Origin: Bacilli bacterium | GTDB taxonomy: Bacteria > Bacillota_I > Bacilli_A > RFN20 > CAG-826 | DNA: 64,000 nt | Direction: 5' to 3' | Assembly: GCA_016302065.1 (NCBI GenBank) | Contig: JAEDOI010000002.1 | Span: forward strand, 1,036-65,035 | Shown here: positions 136 to 30,581 of the stretch, in pieces | Layout: each line of letters starts with the position of its first letter | How positions within the stretch are numbered: the first letter of the stretch is position 1 | The notes under the pieces: generated by a model | Seen by the model: only the letters and a program-made list of their open reading frames with translations | Databases searched by the model: none | Told to the model about the DNA's origin: nothing | Program-made: the position numbers and the translations under genes

Positions 136-663
136 ATGGTGTATAATAATTACATGAATTCGAGTTATAAAGTTGGCGATAAGATTTTAGTTATTAATAT
201 TGGTGTGTGTTTAATTAGCGACATCGAAACTAAAGATTTTGGTAATGGTGAAAAATCATATTATATCCTTCACCCAATTTTTAAAAATTGCAATGATAGA
301 ATAATGATTCCGGTCGAGAACACAAAAAATATTAGAGATCTTGTAGATAAAGAAGTAGCATCTAAAGTATATTCAAATTTTGAAATATATGAAAATTATT
401 GGGTTAAAAATCCTCGTGAACGAAAAGAATATTTTCTTAGTTTGTTAAATAGTGGTGATATATTCAAGATTAAAAACCTGTATTTAACACTTCAAAATAA
501 AAAAGCTGAACTTTTAAATAATAAAAAATTATTAAATACAACCGATAAATATGTATTAGATTCAGTAATTAAATCTTTATCTGAAGAAATTAGTGTTGTA
601 CTTGAACTTGATTATAACGAAACTTTTGATAAACTATCTAATTTTTATTTAGGATTAATTTAG
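136..663 (+). CDS. CarD/CdnL-family RNA polymerase-binding transcription factor
   Basis: 175-aa ORF. N-terminal YKVGDKILV..GVCLISDIETKDF..KSYYILHP..IMIPVENTKNIRDLV fits the CarD_CdnL_TRCF RNAP-interaction domain pattern. TAG stop. Confidence 0.7.
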   Translation: MVYNNYMNSSYKVGDKILVINIGVCLISDIETKDFGNGEKSYYILHPIFKNCNDRIMIPVENTKNIRDLVDKEVASKVYSNFEIYENYWVKNPRERKEYFLSLLNSGDIFKIKNLYLTLQNKKAELLNNKKLLNTTDKYVLDSVIKSLSEEISVVLELDYNETFDKLSNFYLGLI

Positions 664-698
664 TATATTATTAGTAATTAATTAGTTGATACTTAAAT
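649..698 (+). repeat. phased TTAGTA array A (11-bp period: TTAGGA-TTAGTA-TTAGTA-TTAGTT-TTAAAT)
   Basis: Units start at 649, 660, 671, 682 and 693. The unit at 660 contains the TAG stop of the upstream gene. The array ends 22 nt before hairpin 721-743. Confidence 0.8.
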
Positions 699-720
699 AT
701 TTCTTTTAAAATTTATTATA

Positions 721-743
721 TATAAAACTTTTTAAGTTTTATA
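721..743 (+). terminator. intrinsic terminator-like hairpin after the CarD-like gene
   Basis: 10-bp perfect stem TATAAAACTT/AAGTTTTATA with a TTT loop. A T-run (attttt) starts 6 nt downstream. The stem is all A/T plus one C:G pair, so it is weak. Confidence 0.45.
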
Positions 744-753
744 ACATAATTTT

Positions 754-762
754 TGATATAAT
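754..762 (+). promoter_or_regulatory. extended -10 promoter (TGaTATAAT) placed for a leaderless ybeY mRNA
   Basis: TGaTATAAT at 754-762 is followed by exactly 7 nt and then the ybeY ATG (770). There is no SD between them. Confidence 0.45.
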
Positions 763-769
763 TAAGTAT

Positions 770-1219
770 ATGGAAATTATATTTAACAACAAAACAAGAA
801 AGGATGTCGATTCTTACAAAAATAAATTCCTTTCATTATTTGATAAAACATTAAAACATTTGAAATTAAAAAATAATTACATCATGTCTGTTACTATTGT
901 TTCAAAAAATAGAATACATGAGCTTAACAATACATTTAGGGGAATCGATAGACCAACAGATGTTATTAGTTTTGCATTTCTTGATGATAAAAATGAAATA
1001 ATAAATAATAGTAAGATTATTGATTTAGGTGAAATATATATTTGCTACGATATATGTTTAAAAAATGCTAAAAAATACGGAAATAGTTTTGATCGAGAAT
1101 TTTGTTTTTTATTTATTCATGGTCTTCTTCACCTTTTAGGTTATGATCACCAAACAAAAGAGCAAGAAGAAGTGATGTTTAAATTACAAGATGAAATATT
1201 ACCACCAAAGGAGAATTAA
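770..1219 (+). CDS. ybeY: rRNA maturation endoribonuclease YbeY
   Basis: 149 aa with the metal-binding motif HGLLHLLGYDH. Sits upstream of cdd-era as in Firmicutes. Confidence 0.95.
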   Translation: MEIIFNNKTRKDVDSYKNKFLSLFDKTLKHLKLKNNYIMSVTIVSKNRIHELNNTFRGIDRPTDVISFAFLDDKNEIINNSKIIDLGEIYICYDICLKNAKKYGNSFDREFCFLFIHGLLHLLGYDHQTKEQEEVMFKLQDEILPPKEN

Positions 1220-1221
1220 TT

Positions 1222-1620
1222 ATGATTAAAGAAGAATTAGTTGAATATGCAATTAGAGCTAGAGAAAAATCTTATTCACCTTACTCTAATTTTAAAGTTG
1301 GCGCAGCTTTACTAACAAGTGATGATAGTGTATTTGAAGGAGCTAATATAGAAAATGCATCTTACCCATTATCAATGTGTGCTGAAAGAGTTGCGATGTT
1401 TAATGCTTATATGTCTGGAGTAGAGTACGATGATATTGTAGCTTTAGCAGTTGTAGCTGATACTGATACTCCTGTAGCTCCTTGTGGTGCTTGTAGACAA
1501 GTCATGGCTGAACTTTTACCAAGAAACACAATAATTTATTTAGCAAACCTTAAAGGTGAAATAAAAGAATGCAGTATTGATGAACTTTTACCATATTCAT
1601 TTTCTGGAGATGATTTATGA
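1222..1620 (+). CDS. cdd: cytidine deaminase
   Basis: 132 aa with zinc motifs CAERVA and PCGACRQ. TGA stop overlaps the era start (ATGA). Confidence 0.93.
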   Translation: MIKEELVEYAIRAREKSYSPYSNFKVGAALLTSDDSVFEGANIENASYPLSMCAERVAMFNAYMSGVEYDDIVALAVVADTDTPVAPCGACRQVMAELLPRNTIIYLANLKGEIKECSIDELLPYSFSGDDL

Positions 1621-2495
1621 TTAAAAGTGGTTTTGTCACAATTATTGGAAAACCAAATGTAGGTAAATCAACTTTACTTAACAGAATAATTGGTAGCAAA
1701 ATATCAATTGTTACTCCTAAATGTCAAACAACACGAAACAGTATTCAAGGAATATATAATGATAAAGAATCTCAAATAATATTCATCGATACTCCTGGAA
1801 TTCATAAACCATTTAATGAACTAGGTGTTGCTTTAGATAAAGTTTCTTATTCTTCAATTAGAGATTCTGATATTAGTTTATTGCTTGTTGATTGTAGTAA
1901 AGATTATAACGAAGAAGATTCTTTCTTAACTGATAAAATTAAATTTGATAATAAGTTAATTATTGTCTTTAATAAAATTGACTTAACAAATATTGAATTA
2001 ATTACAAGAATTAAAAATAAATATAAAGAAATTTATCCTTCTACTGATATGATTGAAATTTGTGCTAAAGATGGTTTCAATATTCCAGATTTAATTACTT
2101 TAATAAAAAAATATCTTCCTGAAGGTCCAAGATATTATGATGAAACAATAGTTACGGATAGAGATTTATCTTTTAGAATTCAAGAAATAATAAGAGAAAA
2201 GATCCTTTTGCTATTAAAAGAAGAAGTGCCTCATGGAGTATTGGTTTTAGTTGAAGAGATTCATAAAGAAGAAGGAAGGCCTTCAATTTACGCAAAGATT
2301 ATTGTTGAGAAAGAAAGTCATAAAGGTATCATCTTAGGTAAAAAAGGTTCGATGATTAAAAAGATTGGAACTTATTCTCGTCAAGATATTGAAAAAATGA
2401 TTGGGCAACATATAAATCTTGAATTAGTTGTAAATGTGGTAGAAAATTGGAGAAATTCTAGTAGATTTTTAGTAAAAGCAGGTTACAAAATTTAA
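1617..2495 (+). CDS. era: GTPase Era
   Basis: 292 aa. G1 motif GKPNVGKST, DTPG, NKID, and a C-terminal KH domain (KGIILGKKGSMIKKIG). Confidence 0.97.
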   Translation: MIKSGFVTIIGKPNVGKSTLLNRIIGSKISIVTPKCQTTRNSIQGIYNDKESQIIFIDTPGIHKPFNELGVALDKVSYSSIRDSDISLLLVDCSKDYNEEDSFLTDKIKFDNKLIIVFNKIDLTNIELITRIKNKYKEIYPSTDMIEICAKDGFNIPDLITLIKKYLPEGPRYYDETIVTDRDLSFRIQEIIREKILLLLKEEVPHGVLVLVEEIHKEEGRPSIYAKIIVEKESHKGIILGKKGSMIKKIGTYSRQDIEKMIGQHINLELVVNVVENWRNSSRFLVKAGYKI

Positions 2496-3166
2496 TGATT
2501 GAAATTGAAGGAATATTAATTAGCTGCAATCAATATAAGGACAATGATGGTATATTAAACGTCTTAACTCCTAATGGTTACGTATCTATATTAGGAAGAG
2601 GAATATATAAATATAATAATCTAAATTGTTTTTTTGCAAACTCATTATTAATTGGTAAATTTGAGTGTTATAAAGGAAAAGTTGGAGGATTAAAGCTTAG
2701 AACTGTAGATGTCATTAAAAATTTAACTTTAGATTTTTATCAATATAATTCAATAGTTGTACTTGATTCTTTAAAAGAAATTTTATTCAAAATAAAAGAA
2801 AATAATGATTATTTATCTTTATATAATGAGTTATATGATTTTTTAACTACTTCAACTGAAGAGACTAGATTTACTGATTTTCTTTATTTTATATATAATT
2901 TGACAATTATTTTAGGAATTAAACCATCAATAGAAGAAAGTTTTAATTATTTTGATATTAATAATGGAAAATTCATCTATAAGTGTAATGCCAATGAAGC
3001 ATATTCTTTAACCAAGAAAGAGATAGAAGCAATAAATTGTTTAGATAATGGACTAACTATTAAATTAAGTAAAGAAGAGTCTAAAAACTTGTTAGTCTTA
3101 TTTTTAACTTTTATAAGTCAATACTTTGATTTAAATCTTAATTGTATTTGCTATTTTAAAAAATAA
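2495..3166 (+). CDS. recO: DNA repair protein RecO
   Basis: 223 aa. N-terminal OB-fold-like GILISCNQYKDNDGILNVLT. Conserved position directly after era. Confidence 0.8.
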   Translation: MIEIEGILISCNQYKDNDGILNVLTPNGYVSILGRGIYKYNNLNCFFANSLLIGKFECYKGKVGGLKLRTVDVIKNLTLDFYQYNSIVVLDSLKEILFKIKENNDYLSLYNELYDFLTTSTEETRFTDFLYFIYNLTIILGIKPSIEESFNYFDINNGKFIYKCNANEAYSLTKKEIEAINCLDNGLTIKLSKEESKNLLVLFLTFISQYFDLNLNCICYFKK

Positions 3167-3194
3167 ATTTTAAATAAACTACACTCATAATAGG

Positions 3195-3223
3195 TTGACA
3201 ACTATTATTTAAAACAATAGAAT
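3195..3223 (+). promoter_or_regulatory. sigma-A type promoter of glyQS (TTGACA-17-TAGAAT)
   Basis: TTGACA at 3195-3200, a 17-nt spacer, TAGAAT at 3218-3223, GGAGG at 3236-3240 and ATG at 3250. The leader is about 20 nt. Confidence 0.6.
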
Positions 3224-3249
3224 TATAAAGATTTTGGAGGATATTATAT

Positions 3250-4629
3250 ATGAATAATGAAAATAAATTTTCTGTTGTTGCAACACATTTACAAACAACT
3301 GGATATATATTTCAAGGTTCAGAAATTTATGGTGGATTATCAAATACATGGGATTATGGACCTTTAGGGAGTGAATTAAAAAACAACTTAAAACAATTAT
3401 GGTGGAAGAAATTTGTACACGAATCACCAACTAATGTTGGAATAGATGCTGCAATTTTAATGAATCCTAAAGTTTGGGAAGCTACAGGACATGTTACTAC
3501 ATTTAATGACCCTTTAATTGATTGCAAATCTTGTAAATCACGTTTTAGAGCTGACAATTTAATTGAAGAACAATTTAAAGATGTTGATGTTAATGGAATG
3601 AGTCAAAAAGAAATGAATGACTTTATTAAAGAACACAATGTCATTTGTCCTGTTTGTGGTAAGTCTAATTTTACAGATATTAGACAATTTAATATGATGT
3701 TTAAAACTCATATCGGTGTAACAGATGATTCAAAAAGCGAAGTATATTTACGTCCTGAAACTGCTCAAGGTGTTTTCGTAAACTTTAAAAATGTTCAAAG
3801 AGCAACAAGAAGAAAACTTCCTCTTGGAATTTGCAATACAGGAAAAGCCTTTAGAAACGAAATTACTCCAGGAAACTTTACATTTAGAATGAGGGAATTT
3901 GACCAAATGGAACTTGAATTCTTCTGTAAGCCAGGAACTGATCTAGAATGGTTTAATTATTGGAAGAATTACAGTATTAATTTTGTTAAATTACTTGGTA
4001 TTAAAGAAGAAAATTTAAGATTTAGAGATCACGAAACGGAAGAATTAGCATTTTATTCTAAAGCAACTACTGATATTGAATATAAATTTAGCTTTGGTTG
4101 GGGTGAAATTTGGGGTATTGCTGATAGAACTGATTACGATTTAAAGAGACATCAAGAATACTCAAAAGAAAGTTTAGAATATTTAGATCCAGATACTAAT
4201 GAAAGATATGTTCCATATTGTATTGAACCATCATTAGGATTAGATAGGTTATTCTTAATGGTTGTTAATGATGCTTATGATGAAGAGACATTAGAAAATG
4301 GGGAAGTAAGAAAAGTTATGCACCTTCAACCTTTTATAGCACCATTTAAAGCAAGTATTTTACCTTTAAGTAAACAATTAGCTCCAAAAGCTAAAGAAAT
4401 TTTTGATTCTTTAATTCCATATATGAATGTTTCATTTGATGTAACTGGAAGCATTGGTAAAAGATATAGAAGAAATGATGAAATTGGAACTCCATATTGT
4501 GTAACGATTGATTTTGATACTGAAAATGACAATTCAGTTACCGTTAGAGATAGAGATTCAATGAAACAAGAAAGAATTGAAATTAGTAAATTAAAAGATT
4601 ATTTAATGGAGAGAACATTCTGTAAATAA
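3250..4629 (+). CDS. glyQS: glycine--tRNA ligase (homodimeric GlyQS type)
   Basis: 459 aa, class II aaRS. Sequence includes [35 protein letters not shown] and GLDRL. Confidence 0.97.
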
Positions 4630-6470
4630 TGGAAAATAACATCTTACAAATCTCAAAAGAAATATTAAGTCAAATTAATATAGTTGAAATTATTTCACAT
4701 TATATTCAATTAACAAAGAAGGGTAGAAATTATACCGCACTTTGTCCTTTTCACGATGATAAAAATTTAGGAAACTTCTACGTAAGCGAAGAAAAACAAA
4801 TTTTTAGATGCTTTTCATGCAAAGCTAGTGGTAATGCTATTAATTTTGTTCAAAAAAAGGAAAATATTTCTTATTATGAAGCGTTACTGAAAGTTTGTGA
4901 GATAGCAAATATTCACGATGATAGAATACAAAAAAGAACAAAAACTAATATAGATCCTCTACTTGAAGATGCTTATAAATGTTTAAATTCTGAGGTAGAT
5001 TTTTATTTCATGAGCCTAACTAAATCAAACGAAGGAAAAAGCGCTTTAGAATATTTAGCAAATAGAGGATTAAACGAAGATGTTATTAAATATTTTAAAA
5101 TTGGTTATGCTCAAAGCAATGGAACATTATTGATAGATTATTTAAAAAATAAAAATTTTAGTTTAAAAACTATTGTTAACACTGGAATTGCTCGAATTGA
5201 AGATAATCCAATTAAAGATATTAATAACGGAAGAATAGTTTTTCCTATATTTAATAAAATTGGACAACCTGTCGGATTTAGTGCTCGTGTATTTAAAAAT
5301 AAGAGTGATGCAAAATATGTTAATACAAGAGAAACAATAGCTTTTAATAAATCTTCATTACTTTACAATTATCATAACGCTTTACAAGAAGCTAAACGTG
5401 TTGGCTATATTTATGTTTTAGAAGGATTTATGGATGTAATTGCTTGTTATCGAGTTGGAATTAAAAGCGCTGTAGCTTTAATGGGAACATCATTAACAAA
5501 GCAACATCTTCAATTGCTTAGATATACTGGAGCAGAAATTCGACTTTGTTTAGACTTAGATAATCCTGGCCAAAATGCAATGGCTGAAATTATCCAAGTC
5601 TTAGATAATGAAGGCTTGAATTATCGTCTTGTATCTAATCTAACGAGTTATGAAGGCAAAGATTCTGATGAAATATTAAAAAACAATAAAGAAGAAGGGT
5701 TAACTGCTTTCCTAAACAACTTAATTAGTAAAGGAGAGTGGCTCATAAATTATTACTCTAAAAATATTAATCTTTCTTCACTTGAAGGAAGAAAAGAGCT
5801 TGTTAATAAGATGGTTCCATTTCTTGTAAAAGTAAATGATTCACTAGAATTAGAAGATTATTGTGTTAGAATCTCAAAATTAAGTCAATTTTCTTTAGAA
5901 AATATAAAAACTATTATTAGAAAATATAAGGCAAGTAAAGCGGATGATGATAAAAAGACTTACCAAGAACGGTATAGAAAGAATAAGTTTGAAAAAACAA
6001 CACTAACTAAACTTGAGTTGGCTGAAAAACAATTGATGCAATATATTTTAGAAAATAACGATGCATTAAAAATATATGATAAGAAGCTTGGCTTTATGAG
6101 TAATGAAATTTATCGTAATATAGTTAGTTTGATTGAAGACTACATATATGAAAATTCAATTAATAAATATAACGTTAACGATATAATTTCATATTTATCA
6201 TTAAAAGATGGAGATAATGATAAAAAGCAAATAATAATTGATGAATTAGCTGAATTATCTTTGAATAAGAAATATGTGCTTCCTCCTTATTCAGAAGAGA
6301 TTATTAATGAATTAATTTCAACAATTAATATTGAAAGAGAAAAAGCGAGAACTGTTCAAGCTTTTAAGGAAGGAAGTAAAGGTAAAAGTCAATCAGAGCA
6401 AGCTTTACAAGCACAGAACTATATAAATAAAAAACGTGCTATGATTGAGCATTTAGAAAATAAAAAATAA
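4629..6470 (+). CDS. dnaG: DNA primase
   Basis: 613 aa. Zinc finger CPFHDDKNLGNFYVSEEKQIFRCFSC and a TOPRIM region (YVLEGFMDV). Start overlaps the glyQS stop (TAATG). Confidence 0.96.
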   Translation: MENNILQISKEILSQINIVEIISHYIQLTKKGRNYTALCPFHDDKNLGNFYVSEEKQIFRCFSCKASGNAINFVQKKENISYYEALLKVCEIANIHDDRIQKRTKTNIDPLLEDAYKCLNSEVDFYFMSLTKSNEGKSALEYLANRGLNEDVIKYFKIGYAQSNGTLLIDYLKNKNFSLKTIVNTGIARIEDNPIKDINNGRIVFPIFNKIGQPVGFSARVFKNKSDAKYVNTRETIAFNKSSLLYNYHNALQEAKRVGYIYVLEGFMDVIACYRVGIKSAVALMGTSLTKQHLQLLRYTGAEIRLCLDLDNPGQNAMAEIIQVLDNEGLNYRLVSNLTSYEGKDSDEILKNNKEEGLTAFLNNLISKGEWLINYYSKNINLSSLEGRKELVNKMVPFLVKVNDSLELEDYCVRISKLSQFSLENIKTIIRKYKASKADDDKKTYQERYRKNKFEKTTLTKLELAEKQLMQYILENNDALKIYDKKLGFMSNEIYRNIVSLIEDYIYENSINKYNVNDIISYLSLKDGDNDKKQIIIDELAELSLNKKYVLPPYSEEIINELISTINIEREKARTVQAFKEGSKGKSQSEQALQAQNYINKKRAMIEHLENKK

Positions 6471-6531: not shown

Positions 6532-7809
6532 ATGGGAAGAAAACCAAAAAAACAAGAAGTTTTAGATGAAGAAGTCGAAGAATTAGAAGATGAGGACTTT
6601 GAAATCGATGATGATGAAGATGAAGAAACAAAAGTTCAAAAAAGCATCGAGAAAATTATTAAACAATACGAGAAAAAATGTAAAAATAAGAAAATTGATG
6701 TCGATGATTTCTTCGAAAATTATAAGTATGTCAATTTTTCAGATGATCAATACAATGAAATACTTGAAAAATTCAAAAGCGATGGATATGAAATTATTGG
6801 TCTTGATGAAGAAAAAGAACTAGATGATACAGATTTTAATCCTAATGATGCTACTTTAGAAGAAGATGATGATTATGAACCAGATGATTTTGATGAATCT
6901 GAAGATGAAAATGATGAATTAAAATCAATTGATCTTGATAATATTGATAGTATTGATAGTAGTGAAATTAAAGTTCAAGACGGTGTTAAACAATATTTAA
7001 AAGAAATTGGTAAATACCCTTTATTAAAACCAAATGAAGAAAAAGAACTCGCTCAACGTATTGCAAAAGGTGATAAAAGAGCAAGAGACCAATTAATTTG
7101 CTCTAATCTTAGACTTGTAGTTAGTATTGCTAAACATTACATGGGTAGAGGCCTTCAATTCCAAGACTTAATTCAAGAAGGTGACCTAGGATTAATGAAA
7201 GCAGTTGAAAAATTTGATTATACCAAAGGTTTTAAATTCTCAACTTATGCAACATGGTGGATTAAGCAAGCTGTTCAACGTGCTATTCAAGATAAAGCAA
7301 GAATTGTTAGAATTCCTGTTCATATGGTTGAAACTATTAATAAAATTAATAAAACTACTAGACAACTTACTGTTGAACTTGCAAGAAACCCAACTCCTGA
7401 AGAAATTTCAAAGGAACTTGGTGGACAATTCTCTCCTAAAAAGATTATGGAAATCCAAAAAATGGCCCAAGAACCATATTCTCTTGACCAACCAATTGGA
7501 GAAGAAGATGAGACTAAATTAGGAGATTTTATTGAAGATAAAGAAACTTTATCGCCTGCTGAATACACTTATAAGCAAATGAATAAAGAAGCTTTATATA
7601 AAATCATGGAAGATCTTACTGATAAAGAAAGAACAATCATTATTCTTCGTCATGGACTTGAAGATAATAGACCACGTACTTTAGAAGAAGTTGGTAATAT
7701 CTTTAATGTTACTAGAGAAAGAATTAGACAAATCGAAGCAAAAGCTATTAAAAAATTGCGTCACCAAAATAGAACTAAATATTTAGATAAGAATTATAAA
7801 GACTATTAA
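6532..7809 (+). CDS. sigA: primary RNA polymerase sigma factor (sigma-70/SigA)
   Basis: 425 aa. Acidic N-terminus, region 2 ([13 protein letters not shown]), region 4 ([28 protein letters not shown]). AGGAGG SD. dnaG-sigA synteny. Confidence 0.97.
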
Positions 7810-7873
7810 TAAATTTGCTTAAAGTTTAACTATTTTATTCATAATATGTATAAATAGTGGATAAATGGTAAAT

Positions 7874-7912
7874 TTAGTTAATTATTAGTAAATATTTAGT
7901 ATATATTCAGTT
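7874..7912 (+). repeat. phased TTAGTA array B (TTAGTT-TTAGTA-TTAGTA-TCAGTT, 11-bp period)
   Basis: Units start at 7874, 7885, 7896 and 7907. The array lies 65 nt after the sigA stop and 23 nt before the trmK ATG. Confidence 0.8.
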
Positions 7913-7934
7913 AATAATATAAATCTTATTCATT

Positions 7935-9377: not shown

Positions 9378-10227
9378 TTTTTAGATAATTATATATAGAT
9401 AAAACAACATTGTCATCGGAACTAGTCCCTGATAAAACGAGAACTTTTCCTACATTATTAAAATTAATTTTTTTAACCTCATTAAGAGTTGTAACAATAC
9501 TAATATTATTGTTTTTAGTAGTTTTATAGTATATTTCTAGTAAATTATTTGTATTAGCACTAGTTTTATCACCAACTAAAAATACATAATCATAAGTATT
9601 ATTTAATAAATGTTCTTTAAAAATTTCATATCTTTTAGCTGGTTCAACACAAATATTTCTTTCTTTATTTTTGATAAAATTATTTAATTTATCTAAACAA
9701 GAATCATAAGTATCTATGCTCATGGTTGTTTGATTTAATAATACATAATTTTTATTTTTATCTAATTTTTCATAATTATTAACTAAATAATTGTTATCTA
9801 AAAAAGAAAGAAGATATTTAATTTCCATGTGATTTTCATTTCCAATAATAAAATAATTAGTATTGTTCTTATTTTTAACAATATCTAAATTATGCCTAAC
9901 AAATTTACAACAAATATCAAAATATATAAATTTTCTTTCAATAAGAAGATCTAAAACTTGTTTATAGTACCCGTGAAGTCCAAAAATAATAATATCTTTA
10001 TCATTATCTAATTTATTAATGTATTCTAGTTGATCACATTTTTCAGTAGATTCAAAAATAATGAATCCATCTTTTAATAGTGATGTGTTGGTAAAATTAT
10101 TATGAACAAATGGTCCTAAAATATGTATTTTATAATTATGATAATCTCTTTTAATTCTATAAAGTTGACTTAGTCCGTTTTTTACTCCAAAACAATATCC
10201 GTAAGGCTCTAATAATTTTACTTTCAT
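9370..10227 (-). CDS. ispH: 4-hydroxy-3-methylbut-2-enyl diphosphate reductase (MEP pathway)
   Basis: 285 aa. Three candidate cluster cysteines in the expected contexts (YGYCFGV, DICCKFV, NICVEPAKR) plus VHN, LHG, NHMEI, NQTT and KTSANTNNL. Confidence 0.85.
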   Translation of the reverse strand: MKVKLLEPYGYCFGVKNGLSQLYRIKRDYHNYKIHILGPFVHNNFTNTSLLKDGFIIFESTEKCDQLEYINKLDNDKDIIIFGLHGYYKQVLDLLIERKFIYFDICCKFVRHNLDIVKNKNNTNYFIIGNENHMEIKYLLSFLDNNYLVNNYEKLDKNKNYVLLNQTTMSIDTYDSCLDKLNNFIKNKERNICVEPAKRYEIFKEHLLNNTYDYVFLVGDKTSANTNNLLEIYYKTTKNNNISIVTTLNEVKKINFNNVGKVLVLSGTSSDDNVVLSIYNYLKTK

Positions 10228-10278
10228 ATAAAAATTATATCAAAAGGAATGAAAATATTACATTTTTAATGTAAAATA

Positions 10279-14437: not shown

Positions 14438-14476
14438 TTAGTAGTTAATTAGTATTTAATTAGCATTAAAATAGTT
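14438..14476 (+). repeat. phased TTAGTA array C (TTAGTA-TTAGTA-TTAGCA-ATAGTT, 11-bp period)
   Basis: Units start at 14438, 14449, 14460 and 14471. The array is in the 267-bp divergent gap, 42 nt from the deaminase start and sense with rpmG. Confidence 0.8.
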
Positions 14477-14663: not shown

Positions 14664-14828
14664 ATGGCAAAAAAAGGAAATAGAAACTCACTTATTCTTA
14701 AATGTACTGTCTGTGGTGAAGAAGCTTACATTACAAGCAAAAACAAGAAAAATACTCCTGACAAATTAGTAAAGGAAAAATTTTGCCCACACTGCAGAAA
14801 GAAAACAACATTTAAAGAGAAGAAATAA
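14664..14828 (+). CDS. rpmG: 50S ribosomal protein L33
   Basis: Hand-translated 54 aa: MAKKGNRNSLILKCTVCGEEAYITSKNKKNTPDKLVKEKFCPHCRKKTTFKEKK. Contains the CxxC..CxxC zinc ribbon typical of L33. Below the ORF-track size cut-off. Stop overlaps the next start (TAATG). Confidence 0.92.
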   Translation: MAKKGNRNSLILKCTVCGEEAYITSKNKKNTPDKLVKEKFCPHCRKKTTFKEKK

Positions 14829-16354: not shown

Positions 16355-16388
16355 AATTGTTAATTTAAGAATTGAAGTTTTCCACATA

Positions 16389-16416
16389 TACTAGAAAACT
16401 ACTAAATATCTACTAA
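16389..16416 (-). repeat. phased TTAGTA array D (minus strand: TTAGTA-TTAGTA-CTAGTA, 11-bp period)
   Basis: Plus-strand TACTAG, TACTAA, TACTAA at 16389, 16400 and 16411. The array begins 5 nt after the plsY TAG stop and is followed by the shared 14-mer at 16376-16389. Confidence 0.8.
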
Positions 16417-17188: not shown

Positions 17189-17301
17189 AAAAATAACTTC
17201 CTAGTAATATATTTTAAAACAAAACCTACGAAATATCTATTTTATTATGTAAACCTCAATATTAGTTTGAAATTTTAATTAATTATTATAATATATAGGT
17301 T

Positions 17302-17655
17302 ATGAAAGGTAATTTAGCAGCACATATTATAACATTAATATTATCTTTAGCAGTTGGTATTGGATTAGGAATTCTTGATACAATTTTATTTGTCGTTTAT
17401 GCTATAGCTGATGGATTAAGTGAAGGTAATGCTAATAAAGAAGTATTTTTCATCGTAATATTATTCTTTATAATAATTATTTTATGCTTGATTAGTGTGA
17501 TTTTATCAATTATTGGTATAATTTTTATATCGAAAAATAAAACAAATGGATTTAAAGTATTAGGAATTTTAGAAATTTGCACTCTTATTGGAGTAGTAAG
17601 TGGTAGTTTACTTATTGTTACAAATAAGAAAATTGCAAATAAATCTAATTCCTAA
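17302..17655 (+). CDS. hypothetical multi-pass membrane protein
   Basis: 117 aa with 3-4 hydrophobic helices and no recognisable motif. TATAAT lies 9 nt upstream of the ATG. Confidence 0.5.
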   Translation: MKGNLAAHIITLILSLAVGIGLGILDTILFVVYAIADGLSEGNANKEVFFIVILFFIIIILCLISVILSIIGIIFISKNKTNGFKVLGILEICTLIGVVSGSLLIVTNKKIANKSNS

Positions 17656-22621: not shown

Positions 22622-22675
22622 AATGAATATTATAGTGTAATTTTAAATAAAATGATATTTAATTATAGATTAAAT

Positions 22676-22684
22676 TGTTATAAT
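22676..22684 (+). promoter_or_regulatory. extended -10 promoter (TGtTATAAT) placed for a leaderless yqeG mRNA
   Basis: TGtTATAAT is followed by exactly 7 nt and then the ATG at 22692. No SD. Confidence 0.45.
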
Positions 22685-22691
22685 TATTTAT

Positions 22692-23237
22692 ATGAATAAG
22701 TTATTGATTCCTACATTTTATGCTAAAAATTTATTTGATATCGATATAAATTTCTTTACATTATTAAATATTAAATATATTTTTGCTGATTTAGATAACA
22801 CTTTAGATTCATATAAAGAAGAAGTCGCATCAAAAAGAGTAATAGATTATGTAACTTTATTAAAGAAAAATGAAATAAATTTAATAATTGTTTCAAATAA
22901 TTCTAATAAGAGGGTAGAAAAATATGCTCATAGCATTAATATTCCTTATCTTTATAAATGTTATAAACCTTTTACTAAAAAAATTAATAAATATATAAAT
23001 AATAACAAAATAAATAAAGAAAATTGTATAATGATTGGTGATCAGGTATTAACTGATGTAAGATGTGGAAACAAATTAAAAATTAAAACAATCTTAGTTG
23101 ATGATTTAGTTAATTCTAATCAATTAGTTACTAAATTTAATAAATTTATGGCTAAAAATACTTTAAAGAAATTAAAAAGTAGAAATATGTTAGTTAATTG
23201 GAGGGATGTTTATGTCAGAATTCAAGAAAGTAGATAG
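22692..23237 (+). CDS. yqeG: YqeG-family HAD phosphatase
   Basis: 181 aa. Sequence includes FADLDNTL, VSNN and IGDQVLTD. First gene of the yqeG-yqeH block. Confidence 0.88.
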   Translation: MNKLLIPTFYAKNLFDIDINFFTLLNIKYIFADLDNTLDSYKEEVASKRVIDYVTLLKKNEINLIIVSNNSNKRVEKYAHSINIPYLYKCYKPFTKKINKYINNNKINKENCIMIGDQVLTDVRCGNKLKIKTILVDDLVNSNQLVTKFNKFMAKNTLKKLKSRNMLVNWRDVYVRIQESR

Positions 23238-24646: not shown

Positions 24647-24648
24647 AT

Positions 24649-25251
24649 ATGAAAATTGAATTTAATTCTAAATATTTTATTGAAGATAGTAATGGTGTAA
24701 GTGCAAATGAAGAAATTTTAAATATAATTTCTTCATTTTTAGATGAAAAAAGATATAAACATTGTTTAAGTGTAGGAACTTTAGCTTATAAAATAGCAAT
24801 TTCTAATAATTTAAAAGATCCTCTTAAATATTACTTTGCTGGGATTGTCCATGATATTGGAAAAAATTTAGATAATAATAGTGAATATATAAATAAATAT
24901 TTAAGTGAAAAAGAAAAAAAGTATCCTAAATATATGTACCATCAGTTTTTAGGATATTATTTAGTTAAAGAAATATTTTCACTTGATGATGAATATATAC
25001 TAAACGCAATTAAATATCACTGTAGTGGAAGAAAAAATATGAGTGCAATTGAAAAGATAATTTATGCAAGTGATAAAATTGATCCTTTAAGAGGATATGA
25101 TAGCTCATATATGATTGAAGCAATGCTAAATAATTTCGAAACGGGATTTATTTTAGTCTTAGGTGAAAATAAAAAATTTATTAATAACAAGAAATTAAAA
25201 TATTCAGATAATGAGTTAACTGAAGAGTGCTACGAATATTATTTAAAGTAA
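24649..25251 (+). CDS. yqeK: YqeK-family HD-domain phosphohydrolase
   Basis: 200 aa. Sequence includes HCLSVG and VHDIGK. Last gene of the yqe block. Confidence 0.85.
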   Translation: MKIEFNSKYFIEDSNGVSANEEILNIISSFLDEKRYKHCLSVGTLAYKIAISNNLKDPLKYYFAGIVHDIGKNLDNNSEYINKYLSEKEKKYPKYMYHQFLGYYLVKEIFSLDDEYILNAIKYHCSGRKNMSAIEKIIYASDKIDPLRGYDSSYMIEAMLNNFETGFILVLGENKKFINNKKLKYSDNELTEECYEYYLK

Positions 25252-25288
25252 AACCCAATTGATTTATTAATAATTGGGTTATTTTCTT
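25252..25288 (+). terminator. intrinsic terminator after yqeK
   Basis: AACCCAATT (11-nt loop) AATTGGGTT followed by ATTTTCTT, starting directly after the stop. Confidence 0.7.
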
Positions 25289-25298
25289 GTGATATATT

Positions 25299-25326
25299 AC
25301 TTCGTATAATGTCTATTATGTTAATA
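25299..25326. other. dif: candidate chromosome dimer resolution site dif (XerC/XerD target)
   Basis: ACTTCGTATAA-TGTCTA-TTATGTTAATA has the 11-6-11 architecture and is close to the B. subtilis and E. coli dif sequences. It lies in the gap where plus- and minus-strand gene blocks converge. Confidence 0.65.
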
Positions 25327-25394
25327 AAAGCAATCAAAAATACGATAACATCGATATTTTAAAATATATCAAATATTATTATATAAATTTATGT

Positions 25395-25424
25395 ATAAAA
25401 AAATATGTGAGTTTTCCACATATT
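25395..25424 (-). terminator. intrinsic terminator after the ABC permease gene
   Basis: Minus strand: AATATGTG GAAAACT CACATATT followed by TTTTTTT. Confidence 0.65.
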
Positions 25425-25429
25425 CTTAT

Positions 25430-25457
25430 TACTAATAATCTACTAATTTTATACTAA
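25430..25457 (-). repeat. phased TTAGTA array E (three exact TTAGTA units, 11-bp period)
   Basis: Plus-strand TACTAA at 25430, 25441 and 25452. The array begins 9 nt after the permease stop and is followed by the terminator. Confidence 0.85.
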
Positions 25458-25465
25458 TTAACTAT

Positions 25466-26230
25466 TTATTTATCAATTTTAATGAATTTTTCTTTTAAAA
25501 TATATAAAACTAAATCAATAAGTAAATACACAACAACAATTAGCAAAGCATATGAATAAATATCTATATAATTGAATGTATGATTATATGCATTATTTAT
25601 TAAATGTCCAATTCCAATATTTTTATTATCCCCCATTAAAATTTCTGCCATAATTTCAATTTTTAACCCTAATCCAATTGATTGAATAACACTTAATAAA
25701 ATATATGGACTTGCAAGAGGAAATAAAACTTTAAATAAAGATGAAAACCCTTTTGTTTCCTCAAGTCTTAAAGAATTAATAATATTTTGATCTATTTCTA
25801 AAAAACCTTTTAATGTAGCCTCATAAATTAATGGGAATAAAACCAAAAAAGAAATTATTAAATAAGCAAATATATTTTTAATGAATATTATTAGCAAAAT
25901 AGAAATTATAATTGTTGGTATTACCCTAAATATTTTATTAATTGGAGAAAAAAATGCTCTAAATAATTCAAAATAATAGGCTAATATTCCAAAAATTATT
26001 CCAAATATTATCGAAATTAATACTCCAAGTAGTCCTAATCCAATAGTAAAAAATAAAGATTTATATAGATTTATATCTTTTAATAAATTAACAAAATTCA
26101 TTAAAGATTCGATAAAAGAAGGAAAAACACTATTGGAATTATAAATTCTAGAAGATATTTCCCAAAAAAATAGAACAAATAATAAGCCTAAAAATACAAA
26201 AATAATATTTAATATCTTCTTTTTTGTCAT
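25466..26230 (-). CDS. ABC transporter permease (NitT/TauT-like)
   Basis: 254 aa with about 6 TM helices and an EAA-loop-like LRLEETKGFSSLFKVLFPLASPYIL. Confidence 0.8.
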   Translation of the reverse strand: MTKKKILNIIFVFLGLLFVLFFWEISSRIYNSNSVFPSFIESLMNFVNLLKDINLYKSLFFTIGLGLLGVLISIIFGIIFGILAYYFELFRAFFSPINKIFRVIPTIIISILLIIFIKNIFAYLIISFLVLFPLIYEATLKGFLEIDQNIINSLRLEETKGFSSLFKVLFPLASPYILLSVIQSIGLGLKIEIMAEILMGDNKNIGIGHLINNAYNHTFNYIDIYSYALLIVVVYLLIDLVLYILKEKFIKIDK

Positions 26231-26232
26231 AT

Positions 26233-27225
26233 TTAACTAATTAAAGAAATAAATGAATCTATTTTTTCTTCACTTATAAAGTTAGATCCAGTTATTAAAT
26301 TATCACTAGAAGCAATTCCAAATCTATTTTCTTTATTATCTTGTAAAGCTAAAATATAATCTTTTTTGAATCCAAATTTAAGTTCAAATTCTTCATCACT
26401 TATATTTAATTCTTCTAATTTAGATATTATTTTAGAAGGAGCATTTATTGCTTCATCTAAATTTTTAGTAACTGAATTATTTAAATATTGTTCCACTATC
26501 TCTTTATTTTCATTATAAAAGCTATTTTTTACAAATAATCCAGCTTGAGGTATAAAATCATATTCATTATTTGTTTTTTCTTTTAAAGCCCTATTTATAT
26601 CTAAATATTCGTATATATCGTTAGATTCATTATCATCAAAATTATTTTGACTTTTTAAAGCATATAAACTAGGTTCTGCAATTAAAGCCCAATCAACCTT
26701 ATTTCCTTTATGTAAACCGCTCTTTAAAACAGTTGCAACTTGGCTAACTCCATTTAAATAATGAATATTATCTTTATTTTCATTATAAATTGAAGGCAAA
26801 ACATAATTTAAAGATAGATCTGTTATGCTTCCTTTTTGGAATGAAACAATATAATCATCCTTTGAAGGAATGTCTTTATTTGTCTTATTAAATCCTACAA
26901 AATGAAAATTACCTTTAGTTAATAAACCTAAGAATTTATAATCAGATTTATTATTTTTAATTAATTTTAAAGCGTTTGATGATTCAAAAACTATAAAATT
27001 ATATTCACTATTTTTATTTTGTAATTCAATAGGAATACTTGTAGGCGTACTTGTTGTCGTACAATTTGAAGAAAGAATTGATTCATAGATTCCTAAAGTA
27101 GGTGCACCAAGTGGTGATAAAATCTTAATATTTTCATCAATTAAATAAGTATTAGATGATAAATTAGAACAAGAAACGAGATTAATAACAAAAAAGATAG
27201 ATAAAAATTTAAGTTTTTTTATCAT
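26233..27225 (-). CDS. putative ABC substrate-binding lipoprotein
   Basis: 330 aa with a signal peptide and lipobox (FFVINLVSC). Directly upstream of the permease. Ligand unknown. Confidence 0.6.
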   Translation of the reverse strand: MIKKLKFLSIFFVINLVSCSNLSSNTYLIDENIKILSPLGAPTLGIYESILSSNCTTTSTPTSIPIELQNKNSEYNFIVFESSNALKLIKNNKSDYKFLGLLTKGNFHFVGFNKTNKDIPSKDDYIVSFQKGSITDLSLNYVLPSIYNENKDNIHYLNGVSQVATVLKSGLHKGNKVDWALIAEPSLYALKSQNNFDDNESNDIYEYLDINRALKEKTNNEYDFIPQAGLFVKNSFYNENKEIVEQYLNNSVTKNLDEAINAPSKIISKLEELNISDEEFELKFGFKKDYILALQDNKENRFGIASSDNLITGSNFISEEKIDSFISLIS

Positions 27226-27227
27226 AA

Positions 27228-28439
27228 TTATTTTAAAATTTCCTCTATTGTTCTACCAATCATAGTTGGATGTTTCTTTAAATTAAAGTTTGTTAAAATA
27301 GTGTCTCCAATATCAGCAAAACTATCTCTTTCTCCTAAATATCTTCCATCTTTAATCATTTTAGAATAAACAAGTAAAGGTACTTTTTCTCTAGTATGAT
27401 CTGTTCCTTTCCAAGTAGGATCGTTTCCATGATCTGCAGTAATCATTAATAAATCATCATCTCTTAATGATTCTAATAATATATTTAACTTTTCATCAAA
27501 TTCCTCTATTGCTTTCCCATAACCTATAGTATTTCTTCGATGACCATATTCACTATCAAATTCAACTAAATTAACAAAACAAAGACCACTATTAAATGAA
27601 CGATCTAAGCAAATATTGAGTGTTTTATCCATTCCATCATTATTTGAAGTTGTATGAACTGTTGAGGTTACACCACATCCATTAAAAATATCATTAATTT
27701 TACCAACACACCTCACTTCATAATTATTATCTTTTAATATATTTAAAGCTGTTATTCCACTTGGGCTTATTGCATAGTCATGTCTGTTGCTAGTTCTTTT
27801 AAATTCACCCTTCTTCTTGCCAATAAATGGTCGTGCAATAACTCTTCCAACAAACCATTCATCTTTTAAACATAATTTACGAGCAATTTCGCAACATCTA
27901 TATAATTCATCAAGACCTGTAACTTCTTCACTTGCACAAATTTGAAGAACTGAATCACTTGAAGTATAAACGATTAAAGAATTATCTCTAATTTGCTCTT
28001 CTCCTAAATCATCCAAAATTTTTGTTCCACTAGCAGCATAATTTCCAATAATTTTATGCCCAGTTTGTTTTTCAAGTTCATCAATCAATTCTTTTGGAAA
28101 TCCTGTATCAGTAAATGTTTTAAAAGGAGTTGTTGTTTTAATTCCCATCATTTCCCAATGCCCAGTCATGGTATCTTTTCCATTGCTTGCTTCATTAAGT
28201 TTTAATGTATAAGAAGACAAATGCTCGACACTATCAATATTTTTTAAGTTATCAAGATCTTTAATTCCTAATTTTGTAAGTGTTGGAATATTTAATTTAT
28301 CAAATGCTTCACTAATATGTTTAAAAGTATTAGCACCTAAATCACTTACTTCTCCAGTTTGATGAAACAAAGCTTGATCCTTAGCCTCTCCAATTCCTAA
28401 ACTATCCATGACAATAACAAATATTCTTTTAAATTTCAT
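27228..28439 (-). CDS. deoB: phosphopentomutase
   Basis: 403 aa. Sequence includes [26 protein letters not shown] and TDHTRE. Confidence 0.96.
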
Positions 28440-28451
28440 ATTTTTCTCCTT

Positions 28452-29339
28452 TTATTTCTTTTTCCAAAATTGATCATATTCATTTAATATTTTCTCATTA
28501 GTTAAATGAGTGTAAATTTGAGTTGTTTCAATGTTTGTATGTCCAAGTAATTCTTGAACAACCCTTAAATCAGCCCCATTTTCAAGTAAATGTGTGGCAA
28601 ATGAATGCCTTAATGAATGAGGATGAATTTCTTTTTCAATTCCTGCCATTTTGGCATATTTTCTAATCTCTATAAAGAAATATTGCCTCGATATCTTTTT
28701 TCCCTTTAAATTTAAGAAAACATAACTCTTATCAACAATTAATTTTAACTTATTTCTAACTTCATTAATATATAAAAGTAAATATTTTAATGACTCTTCT
28801 CTAATTGGAATGCTTCTTTCTTTTTTACCCTTTCCTAAAACTGTAATAATCCTTTCATTTACATTAACTTGCTTCATTTTTAAAGAACAAAGTTCACTAA
28901 CACGAAGACCACTACAATACATAATTTCTACCATTGCTTTATTTCTAATATGATTTTTGTTAGTTAATGGTATTACATCAAGCAGTCTATCAACTTCTTC
29001 TTTCGTTAAATAAACTGGCAATTTTTTAGGAGTTTTAGGCATTTCAATATTGTCGATTATGTCTTTTGTAACTATTTTTTCACTTTCTAAGAATATATAA
29101 AAACCTTTTAAAAATGTTATTCTTCGAGAAATAGTCTTTTCACTTAATTCATCAATAGATTGATTAAAAGTGAAATTATCAAAATCATCTTTAGACAAAT
29201 CATCTGTATCCTTAATATTAGGAAAATAATAAAGAAATTTCTTAAAATCGTCTTTATAATCAGTAATAGTTACATTTGTAAGTTGTTTTTCAAACATACA
29301 AAATTGTAAATATCTTTCAAATGCCTCATTTATCTCCAT
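28452..29339 (-). CDS. xerD: tyrosine recombinase XerD-type
   Basis: 295 aa. Catalytic region includes GLRVSEL, HSLRHSFATHLLENGADLRVVQELLGH and IYTH. xerD-deoB adjacency as in other Firmicutes. About 3 kb from the dif candidate. Confidence 0.8.
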   Translation of the reverse strand: MEINEAFERYLQFCMFEKQLTNVTITDYKDDFKKFLYYFPNIKDTDDLSKDDFDNFTFNQSIDELSEKTISRRITFLKGFYIFLESEKIVTKDIIDNIEMPKTPKKLPVYLTKEEVDRLLDVIPLTNKNHIRNKAMVEIMYCSGLRVSELCSLKMKQVNVNERIITVLGKGKKERSIPIREESLKYLLLYINEVRNKLKLIVDKSYVFLNLKGKKISRQYFFIEIRKYAKMAGIEKEIHPHSLRHSFATHLLENGADLRVVQELLGHTNIETTQIYTHLTNEKILNEYDQFWKKK

Positions 29340-30543
29340 TTTTTCTTTCCTTTAATTTACTGCCTGAAAAGAATAAATCTTTATTTGCTTTTCGATTTAA
29401 GTCATTAATTAACAATTGAACTTTGCTTTCGCTTTCATATTTTTCATAGTTATCAAACGTCATTTGAACATCTAGCTTCTCTTTATCTTTTAAATTTTTT
29501 AATGTTACACCAGCCATTCTTAATAGAGTAAAATCATAAGTTTCATCAACAAATTGGCTAATTTTTTTAGTAATAAACTCCTTATCATCACTAAATTCAT
29601 TAAATGATTTAGCAAAAGTTTTAGTTTTAAAATCACTATCTTGACCACCTTCTTTATATACTAATTGAATAGTTTTACATACTTTATTTTTATTTTTCAT
29701 TTCATCAATAATAATTGAAGCTTGACTTAAAATCATATTTTTAATGAAATCAATATTATCACTATCATAATCAAACGTTGTAGTTCTTCCAATTGATTTA
29801 GGATCAAAGTCATTTAGGTTTAATTTATCATCACTTTTACCTTCTAAACATAAAATAATATTGTCTTTAAAGTTCATTAAATAATTATTTAATAAATCGT
29901 TAGGATCGTTTTTCTTAATTCGATAATATAAATCTCCAATAGTATTAATTCCAATATTTTGAAGCTTTGGATAAGTCTTATTACCAATTCCATAATAATC
30001 TTTAATAGGAAGAGGAAAAATTATTGATGGAATATCTTTTTTTCTAATTATTGTAATTCCGTTAGGTTTTTTAATATCGCTTCCCATTTTAGCTAAAAAC
30101 TTAGTACTAGCTACACCAATTGAACAATAAAGCTTGGTTTTATTATATAATCCAACTTGAATGTTTTTTAAATATTCATTTATATTATTGTTCCCATATT
30201 TTTTAAAAGATTCAGTAATGTCCATATAGCATTCATCAATTGATGCTTGTTCAACTAAAGGAGTAAATTGTTTTAAATGATGAACAAACTCTCTAGACAT
30301 CAAATTATAATATTTAAAATCACATGGAAGAATGATTAATTCTTTACATAAAGCTTGAGCTTGAAACATTGGCATTCCAGAATGTATTCCATAACTCCTC
30401 GCTTTATAAGAACATGTTGAAACAATACCCTTTCTTCCAGTTCCACCAACTGCAACAGGTTTATTAATCAAACTAGGGTTCTTAATTTCTTCGCATCTAA
30501 CAAAGAAGGCATTTAAATCAACATGAAGAATTATTCTACTCAT
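29326..30543 (-). CDS. dinB: DNA polymerase IV
   Basis: 405 aa, Y-family. Sequence includes ILHVDLNAFFVRCEE and SIDECYMDIT. Confidence 0.93.
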   Translation of the reverse strand: MSRIILHVDLNAFFVRCEEIKNPSLINKPVAVGGTGRKGIVSTCSYKARSYGIHSGMPMFQAQALCKELIILPCDFKYYNLMSREFVHHLKQFTPLVEQASIDECYMDITESFKKYGNNNINEYLKNIQVGLYNKTKLYCSIGVASTKFLAKMGSDIKKPNGITIIRKKDIPSIIFPLPIKDYYGIGNKTYPKLQNIGINTIGDLYYRIKKNDPNDLLNNYLMNFKDNIILCLEGKSDDKLNLNDFDPKSIGRTTTFDYDSDNIDFIKNMILSQASIIIDEMKNKNKVCKTIQLVYKEGGQDSDFKTKTFAKSFNEFSDDKEFITKKISQFVDETYDFTLLRMAGVTLKNLKDKEKLDVQMTFDNYEKYESESKVQLLINDLNRKANKDLFFSGSKLKERKNGDK

Positions 30544-30581
30544 ACTTATTTATTACTAACTATATACTAATAAATTACTAT
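30543..30581 (-). repeat. phased TTAGTA array F (minus strand: ATAGTA-TTAGTA-TTAGTA-TAAGTA, 11-bp period)
   Basis: Plus-strand TACTTA, TACTAA, TACTAA, TACTAT at 30543, 30554, 30565 and 30576. The array fills the whole xseB-dinB gap: its first TAG is the xseB stop and its last A is the A of the dinB ATG. Confidence 0.85.

Follow-up and report, generated by a model that had tools for sequence, protein, structure and literature searches.

Phased TTAGTA arrays around dif, and a conserved module beside dif, in low-GC Bacilli

Why should one hexamer, TTAGTA, recur at a period of exactly 11 bp among the housekeeping genes of a 25% GC bacterium, and what kind of element does it build? We addressed this question in a stretch of 64,000 nucleotides from the Bacilli bacterium contig JAEDOI010000002.1 (assembly GCA_016302065.1), which we call the window; all positions are counted within it. 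A preliminary description, made from the letters of the window, had listed six intergenic arrays of the hexamer (A to F), and all six were found with the coordinates and units reported there. We observed that the arrays are non-random, are conserved at orthologous positions in other genomes, cluster around the chromosomal dif site and, beside dif itself, stand in a fixed geometry with it. The preliminary description lacked the decisive context: the terminus, dif, the partner motif TGTGGAWAAC and the clustering around dif were all absent from it.

Phased arrays at the replication terminus

The exact pair TTAGTA-N5-TTAGTA occurred 8 times in the window, compared to 0.04 ± 0.20 times in 100 dinucleotide shuffles, in agreement with the earlier contention that the arrays are not compositional noise. 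All seven adjacent pairs counted previously were recovered, and an extra pair at 38446–38462 brought the total to eight. The hexamer alone was not enriched (81 copies versus 69 ± 8). Scanning spacers of 0–29 bp showed that spacer 5 gave 8 exact pairs and 19 pairs with at most one mismatch. Spacer 16, a 22-bp period and thus the harmonic of 11, was the sole other enriched spacer, and every remaining one gave 0–1 exact pairs and 0–4 with at most one mismatch. A model of three in-phase units (score of at least 15 out of 18) yielded 19 matches that merged into nine arrays, versus 0–2 matches per first-order Markov simulation. Six of the nine arrays fell in the 4.7% of window bases outside open reading frames (ORFs) of at least 70 amino acids (aa), and the other three lay inside ispH, relA and valS, each antisense to its host gene. 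The earlier list of six was therefore incomplete, having missed the three antisense intragenic arrays and a weak two-unit site at the end of era. Its count of about 13 intergenic gaps was also too low; we counted 19 gaps of at least 40 bp between ORFs of at least 70 aa.

Within the window arrays, hexamers occupied offsets 0, 11 and 22 only. The units were direct repeats and not palindromes, and a logo showed conservation of unit positions T1, T2, T5 and A6. The spacers were A/T-rich, which is uninformative in a genome of 25% GC. No intergenic array and no exact pair was found at 51–64 kb of the window. Rfam covariance models gave no match overlapping any array or the dif module (gathering threshold, whole window; E ≤ 1, window 1–52000).

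Gene directions converge at ~25.3 kb, the GC skew switches sign at the same place, and the cumulative G-C curve reaches its maximum at 25330. The convergent gap between yqeK and an ABC-permease gene holds the window's top match to the dif sites of B. subtilis and E. coli (21/28 each), and dif was recovered in 59 loci overall, of which 38 were non-redundant. The window spans and centres on the replication terminus, with a canonical XerCD dif at the GC-skew switch. The arrays and associated sites, in order along the window, are the following.

649–698 (+): array A, units TTAGGA, TTAGTA, TTAGTA, TTAGTT, TTAAAT; running out of the final codons of the CarD-like gene into the gap ahead of ybeY
2458–2474 (+): weak site of two units, CTAGTA-N5-TTAGTA, within the final codons of era on the sense strand
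7856–7864: near-box AGTGGATAA, just upstream of array B
7874–7912 (+): array B, between rpoD and a methyltransferase gene
9515–9553 (+): ispH-internal array, antisense to ispH
14438–14476 (+): array C, between the divergent genes tadA (-) and the probable rpmG (14664–14828, +)
16377–16386 (-): TGTGGAAAAC box, 2 nt downstream of array D and followed by a strong terminator
16389–16416 (-): array D, starting 4 nt past the plsY stop codon
25299–25326 (+): dif site, ACTTCGTATAA-TGTCTA-TTATGTTAATA (XerC arm, central region, XerD arm)
25341–25360 (-): A-run, then the palindrome ATCGAT-gtt-ATCG, the local version of the conserved GAT-WAA-ATC element
25411–25420 (-): TGTGGAAAAC box of the dif module, forming the 5' arm and loop of a terminator hairpin
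25430–25457 (-): array E, three exact units, 8 nt past the ABC-permease stop and ~100 bp from dif
28452–29339 (-): gene for a XerD/XerC-type tyrosine recombinase of 295 aa, without an additional arm-binding domain, 3 kb from dif
30543–30581 (-): array F, from the xseB stop codon through to the dinB ATG
38435–38473 (+): relA-internal array, antisense, holding one exact pair (38446–38462)
50705–50743 (+): valS-internal array, antisense to valS

The details reported earlier for array F, namely its overlap with the xseB stop and the dinB start, were correct. Arrays A, D and E had been placed between a stop codon and a terminator hairpin; the hairpins after D and E are real, and the one after A was no better than in shuffled sequence (z = −0.7). 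The identification of the 54-aa ORF downstream of array C as ribosomal protein L33 (rpmG) is probable, judging from its sequence.

A module in fixed geometry with dif

On the strand that carries them, arrays D and E both have ATGTGGAAAACT downstream. The core of this motif, TGTGGAWAA, corresponds to the DnaA-box consensus TTWTCCACA read on the opposite strand. Only three exact copies of TGTGGAWAA occur in the window, and two of them, the TGTGGAAAA boxes, adjoin arrays D and E. The box beside D and E, as distinct from the array units, matches the 9-mer DnaA-box pattern TTWTNCACA. Among the low-GC loci, 8 of 31 copies of TGTGGAWA sat at most 75 nt downstream of an array, and the box, where paired with an array, was always 3' of it on the same strand. 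After the composite of array D and its box, a GCGAT-N4-ATCGC hairpin resembles the palindrome of the dif module.

We scanned metagenome contigs for the pattern TTAGTA-N5-TTAGTA-N(1-31)-TGTGGAWAAC, which contains no dif term, and obtained 86 loci. Metagenome and genome loci together comprised 65 non-redundant composites of array and box. Of these, 37 adjoined dif, always on the side of the XerD arm. The distance from the start of the box to the ACATAA of the XerD arm was 98–101 nt in 33 of the 37 non-redundant lineages, and 99 nt in the window. The order of the module is [TTAGTA-N5] in 2–5 copies, the TGTGGAWAAC box, ~85 bp, and the XerD arm of dif, roughly 150 bp in total. The TTATGTTAAC of the XerD arm is the end of dif proximal to the module in all cases, and the geometry holds across lineages of 24–51% GC and two dif subtypes. 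The 85 bp between box and dif are otherwise unconserved, save for an A-run and a GAT-WAA-ATC palindrome fixed ~25–35 nt from dif in 31 aligned lineages (best copies CGATTAAATCG). In 21 of 36 cases the box followed the last hexamer at an offset of 15, 26 or 37 nt, that is, 4 modulo 11; the arrays thus share the helical phase of the box and, through it, that of dif. Because this geometry is fixed in base pairs relative to a DNA recombination site, it is a property of the DNA.

At two loci (L005 and L011) the module was present at dif although the exact three-unit match of the scan fell elsewhere in the locus. The genes beside the module were conserved as well: one flank has deoB, a binding protein and the permease, the opposite flank nadD/yqeK, yqeI and yqeH. 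A trio of 375-, 97- and 360-aa ORFs beside many composites was considered as dnaN-yaaA-recF, which would have placed the composites near an origin; we rejected this, since the genes are yqeH, yqeI and nadD/yqeK of the array E locus. At one locus (L122 6468–7007, -) a protein with a PemK/MazF-like toxin domain replaces the ABC permease, and its stop runs into the dif-adjacent array.

We then asked how the arrays are distributed among genomes. A scan of GTDB (one genome per species, three exact units) returned at least 120 loci in two unrelated groups; since the detection patterns demanded exact TTAGTA units, the collection is biased to well-preserved arrays. Among the matches listed, 29 loci from low-GC Bacilli, 'Mollicutes' and metagenome-assembled genomes (MAGs) of Erysipelotrichaceae resembled the window in having variable spacers. 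Of these 29, nineteen were syntenic with the 64-kb block of the window, where ~5% would be expected if arrays were evenly spread along the chromosome. The other group among the matches listed, from Bacteroidales and various genomes, consisted of true tandem 11-mers with conserved spacers, and this family appears unrelated to the Bacilli arrays. In MAGs of Bacteroidales and Paludibacteraceae, the unit of a multi-copy repeat family was TTAGTAtgtga or TTAGTAggtga in 3–7 copies, with conserved spacers and flanks, e.g. gtacttgtcgggttaagtgtatgtga. Loci of this type included L003, L007, L012, L015, L020–L021, L029, L031–L033, L035, L062, L065, L070–L071 and others, and genome CAKUUM01 alone had at least nine.

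A scan of viral contigs was uninformative: most matches were true tandem 11-mers whose spacers were identical. Ten phage-like metagenome contigs of 32–60% GC (L130, L134, L138, L142, L154, L158, L167, L184, L191 and L203), with a portal protein, DUF932 and many ORFans, carried tandem TGTTAGTAAC units that keep an 11-bp phase with consensus DnaA boxes, TGTGGATAAC, likewise in tandem. The arrangement looks like two box types that one assembly reads. The high-GC loci among them were considered as chromosomal origins and rejected, as they look like phage genomes.

In the Bacilli, arrays recurred at the same places. An array at the 3' end of plsY, often with the box, was found in at least nine loci (L064, L076, L120, L129, L144, L147, L156, L161 and L199), and one at the 3' end of xseB in at least 12, irrespective of the downstream gene. 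Arrays lay directly upstream of dnaG in four lineages and recurred in the parC-yqeG gap of relatives. In the gap that holds array A, relative L330 had an array scoring 18/18 that ends 3 nt before the ybeY ATG. The antisense array inside ispH occupied the same place in relatives L330 and L331 (85–87%), where the hexamers were kept and the spacers had changed; in two distant lineages (L092, L101) an antisense array lay at another codon position of ispH. Both close relatives also carried an antisense array inside alaS. The valS array was identical over the same 39 nt in L208 (MutS2 57% identical) and near-identical in L207. The 22-kb loci around mutS2 in L207 and L208, at ~+24 to +48 kb relative to dif, lacked intergenic arrays as well as exact pairs. 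In three different genomes (L097 4977–5004, L110 2030–2068, L111 4609–4636) an exact three-unit array lay ~45 nt upstream of a conserved 461-aa protein in the lepA-hemW interval, a protein with no Pfam or NCBIfam match.

A check of orthologous sites had been proposed in the preliminary description, and it found hexamers and phase kept in relatives. With spacers differing at the same sites in many lineages, the proposal of selection on a phased element, and not recent tandem duplication, was borne out.

Orientation was less uniform than had been described. Co-orientation with the adjacent transcription unit was true of the six listed arrays, and failed for the intragenic arrays and for several in relatives. 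Intergenic arrays were mostly sense, often starting 0–20 nt past a stop codon; antisense exceptions were found upstream of tkt (L001, L087), between nrdA and nrdB (L085) and upstream of ftsA (L106, L107). At three loci (L135, L187, L194) the dif-adjacent array lay beyond the terminator of the upstream gene. Both observations, arrays in either orientation and arrays past terminators, favour recognition at the DNA level. Of the three readings offered earlier, direct repeats read on one face of the DNA helix fit best in general form. Loading of an RNA-binding protein was unsupported as a general mechanism, given the antisense arrays and those past terminators. Within ±10 kb of dif in 38 lineages, 20 arrays pointed toward dif and 5 away, a bias that gene direction confounds. 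Orientations show no mirror symmetry about dif: the plsY, relA, valS, alaS and tkt-upstream (L001/L087) arrays point away from it, and in the window the arrays read + + + + - along the left arm and - - + + along the right.

Candidate functions of the arrays

Our preferred explanation, which we hold with a confidence only slightly above even, is that the arrays are DNA-level sites for a cooperative binder and a conserved feature of the terminus zone, with the dif-side copy belonging to an accessory module. Three to five hexamers spaced one helical turn apart would allow a predicted protein to bind cooperatively along one face of the duplex. Several sites at exactly one turn is the geometry of OmpR/PhoB-type regulators, plasmid centromere-binding proteins and DnaA assemblies. 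The arrays would mark a terminus zone of ~−33 to +25 kb around dif in reduced-genome, low-GC Bacilli (RFN20/Erysipelotrichales-like). At dif, the module of array, DnaA-box-like box and GAT-WAA-ATC palindrome would assemble an accessory nucleoprotein complex, with further factors on the box and the palindrome, and this complex may control or direct chromosome-dimer resolution. Elsewhere in the terminus zone, this protein would be loaded by the remaining arrays and serve organisation, polarity or barrier formation; these arrays might confer a MatP-like terminus identity, polarity, or barrier activity. Protein binding, the identity of the binder, and effects on Xer recombination, replication termination or segregation are what we infer from these sequence patterns.

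The closest functional precedent, by analogy, would be found at two plasmid Xer sites, cer (ArgR and PepA) and psi (ArcA and PepA), in whose accessory region factors at fixed distances from the core impose resolution selectivity (Xer review). Those sites and the dif module are alike in having conserved, predicted protein-binding motifs at a fixed distance (~100–180 bp) on one side of a XerC/XerD core, for factors that have further sites elsewhere in the genome. In contrast to cer and psi, the module here flanks a chromosomal dif, lies on the XerD and not the XerC side, and is built from unrelated motifs (TTAGTA arrays, TGTGGAWAAC, GAT-WAA-ATC). The MatP-matS system is a second point of comparison, as specific DNA sites confined around dif, as the arrays may be, could confer a distinct identity on the terminus. 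However, matS is a single 13-bp palindrome occurring ~1 per 35 kb over 800 kb in enterobacteria, whereas the arrays are direct repeats found ~1 per 5–7 kb over roughly 60 kb, with one copy geometrically coupled to dif.

A bolder version is possible, though we put it forward only tentatively: the arrays may belong to a previously unrecognised terminus system of these reduced-genome Bacilli, in which a protein, possibly a distant PadR/RTP-like winged-helix factor, polymerises on arrays over ~60 kb and joins a DnaA-box-binding factor, possibly DnaA, in a complex of fixed geometry on the XerD side of dif. Such a complex would couple termination or initiator status to dimer resolution, perhaps replacing or directing FtsK control.

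Several points weigh against the explanation that we prefer. Ten of the 29 Bacilli-type loci among the matches listed were non-syntenic with the window, and the clustering around dif is based on synteny of scan matches and not on a whole-genome count. The non-syntenic loci include L085 (476–5327), with five arrays in both orientations in 5 kb around nrdA-nrdB-udk-degV, and L106 and L107, with antisense arrays upstream of ftsA; in L085 the nrdA-nrdB gap is filled by 5–6 antisense units. Intergenic arrays that are biased to the sense strand, together with intragenic arrays that are exclusively antisense, may reflect a constraint tied to transcription, for which the explanation offers no account. 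The logo was built from detected arrays and is partly circular, detection itself having scored matches to TTAGTA. Among the ~48 window ORFs scanned, none encoded a candidate for the binder. A role at dif alone leaves the other arrays unexplained, and the accessory sequences of plasmid Xer sites are on the XerC side of the core, opposite to the module here. The genes beside arrays in the non-syntenic loci included no candidate regulator. Two window ORFs without family matches, of 117 and 77 aa, were considered as binders and rejected, as they are membrane proteins.

It is unlikely, in our estimate, that the arrays are operators of an OmpR/PhoB-type or other tandem-binding factor that serves a replication and division regulon (dnaG, dinB, nrdAB, ftsA, parC-yqeG) and was co-opted at dif. 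The pattern of hexamer-N5-hexamer in 2–5 units with A/T-rich spacers does suit that family, whose operators share the hexamer, the 5-bp A/T-rich spacer, the 11-bp period, the head-to-tail tandem arrangement and the variable copy number; ArcA, for one, reads direct repeats with an 11-bp period. The family consensuses include TTHACA-N5 for PhoP, TGTWAH-N5 for WalR and TTTAAG-N5 for CiaR, as well as that of ArcA, and TTAGTA matches none of them. Arrays also abut promoter-like elements upstream of dnaG in the four lineages and occur at dinB, nrdAB and ftsA, but they differ from such operators in clustering at the terminus, where a regulon predicts no clustering around dif. Many lie at 3' ends or within genes; others are 3–120 nt from start codons, with no consistent −35/−10 position or distance to a −10 element. 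We found no regulator gene in the window. The idea that the arrays serve as core promoter elements was likewise rejected, as clear leaderless TATAAT-N7-ATG promoters occur in the window without them. The accessory role of ArcA at psi is nevertheless a precedent for co-option (Xer review). It is improbable, too, that the arrays form a replication fork trap, with polar Ter-like barriers for an RTP-like winged-helix protein confining termination to dif. The clustering at the terminus, the 20-to-5 orientation bias and the G-C switch exactly at dif speak for a fork trap. The TerI/TerII sites of B. subtilis, upstream of rtp (L332 9828–9860, 9950–9985), read TTRGTA-c-ATAGTK-N3-TYAGTK on one strand with hexamer offsets 0, 7 and 16; like the arrays, they are a site family near the terminus of a member of the Bacilli and consist of direct hexamers of the same TAGT family. 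A Ter site, however, is 30 bp long, with overlapping A and B sites and a spacing of 7+9 bp, binds two RTP dimers and belongs to one of two strictly opposed groups, whereas the arrays have 3–5 units at exactly 11 bp and unmirrored orientations, with a directional bias confounded by gene direction. A barrier would also need no fixed 85-bp distance to dif. The named matches to a validated RTP query (PF02334) were all Bacillaceae, in a word-seeded search that left many matches nameless and could miss remote homologues, and no RTP or PadR match was found among the ~48 window ORFs scanned.

That the arrays are DnaA-binding loci, at which TGTGGAWAAC nucleates DnaA oligomers on the phased units to titrate or regulate DnaA from the last-replicated region, is equally improbable. 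The box speaks for this reading: it has the DnaA-box consensus and a constant position 3' of the array, 8 of 31 copies of TGTGGAWA in low-GC loci lie close behind arrays, and the polarity equals that of TAG trios and the reverse-complement box at oriC (read from T. maritima oligonucleotides). The phage-like loci, with their TGTTAGTAAC units in phase with tandem TGTGGATAAC boxes, and the arrays flanking nrdAB point the same way. Known DnaA assemblies (E. coli oriC and datA; box plus DnaA-trio) resemble the composites in setting a consensus-like 9-mer beside same-strand repeats of 11-bp period, as does the trio system in having TAG-containing repeats 5' of a reverse-complement box. The low-affinity DnaA arrays at E. 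coli oriC or datA have 9+2-bp spacing. Yet the array units miss the register of a DnaA box, since the best alignment, AGTAGTTAA against TGTGGATAA, gives 6/9 and leaves the conserved T1 and T2 in the 2-bp gap (by hand on the partly circular logo). Most arrays lack a box, runs of consecutive trios are absent (no more than two triplets, TAG TAT, adjoin the D box), and the setting is a terminus instead of an origin. No dnaA was detected in any retrieved locus by tblastn with a DnaA fragment as the query. We regard as very unlikely the idea that the arrays are polar guide or loading sites (KOPS-like) for the FtsK/SpoIIIE translocase, in which the copy beside dif would serve to load the motor on its XerD side. 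A majority of arrays are directed toward dif, and the dif-adjacent one is so always and from the XerD side, but known KOPS, SRS and AIMS are single 7–8-mers skewed genome-wide, unlike arrays of 11-bp period, a hand count of single TTAGTA hexamers gave no strand skew across dif, and the conserved exceptions face away. About as unlikely, and marginally more so, is action as RNA, with UUAGUA repeats in 3' untranslated or intercistronic regions loading a multimeric RNA-binding protein or serving as a three-frame stop cassette. Many arrays do lie in sense 0–20 nt past a stop codon and before a terminator, and the intragenic ones are all antisense, as though sense copies were avoided in genes. The antisense arrays upstream of tkt and ftsA and between nrdA and nrdB, and those downstream of terminators, speak against it, and a role as RNA offers no reason for a DNA geometry that is fixed relative to dif. 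The stop cassette, the third of the earlier readings, fails because it requires neither the strict 11-nt period nor conserved T1, T2, T5 and A6, and because of the antisense and intragenic arrays. Finally, there is next to no chance that the arrays are a functionless selfish or neutral repeat family (MITE-like or slippage-derived). Slippage could make an 11-bp tandem structure, and tandem 11-mers containing TTAGTA are common in phage contigs and Bacteroidales, but positions, phase and hexamers are kept across lineages with 40–60% identical proteins while spacers diverge, terminal repeats are absent, and the geometry with dif is fixed.

Phased hexamer repeats, families of terminus sites and Xer accessory sequences were already known; the combination, the clade and the geometry appear new. 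We found no description of TTAGTA arrays or of a conserved dif-flanking module in the searchable full-text literature, outside which most subscription papers lie, and the RR_1586 motif of C. difficile is unrelated to these arrays. Terminus handling (fork traps, Ter-domain organisers, Xer control) is understood mainly in E. coli and B. subtilis. Tus, RTP and MatP are each restricted to few taxa, so that for most bacteria no equivalent is known. The signature described here supplies candidate cis-elements of a terminus system in Bacilli of the gut, rumen and digesters, a large group whose members are mostly uncultured. Its ~150-bp module is locked to the chromosomal dif at base-pair precision in lineages of 24–51% GC. 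If our preferred explanation is true, a chromosomal dif with conserved accessory architecture would challenge the view that XerCD and FtsK suffice there, and a consensus DnaA box 85 bp from dif would be an unexpected link between initiator and terminus. The module is also a practical marker for dif and the terminus in fragmented metagenome-assembled genomes.

Gene content and other features of the window

The window carries housekeeping genes in the standard genetic code. The left arm includes ybeY, era, glyS, dnaG, rpoD, ispH, ispG, efp, plsY, parE, parC, yqeG, yqeH, yqeI and yqeK. On the right arm are the ABC transporter, deoB, the XerD-type recombinase gene, dinB, xseBA, nusB, tkt and aspS, followed by hisS, relA, recJ, secDF, valS, lon, tig, uvrC and mutS2. 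The closest named relative of the Era protein was from Candidatus Onthovivens (62% identity), and an exact-protein look-up of the ABC permease returned no record. An L21 leader (Rfam RF00559) was found at 48372–48444 (-), upstream of rplU.

The operon-first genes ybeY, ispH, the 117-aa ORF, the 77-aa ORF and yqeG have a TATAAT ~6–9 nt before the ATG and no Shine-Dalgarno sequence (755–772; 10228–10245, -; 17283–17304; 22622–22640, -; 22673–22694), and operon-internal genes do carry AGGAGG-type sites. This pattern suggests that leaderless mRNAs are frequent in the organism. Close relatives have two rpoD-like sigma-70 genes in tandem (L330 14852–17486; L331 14860–17468), versus one in the window (6532–7809).

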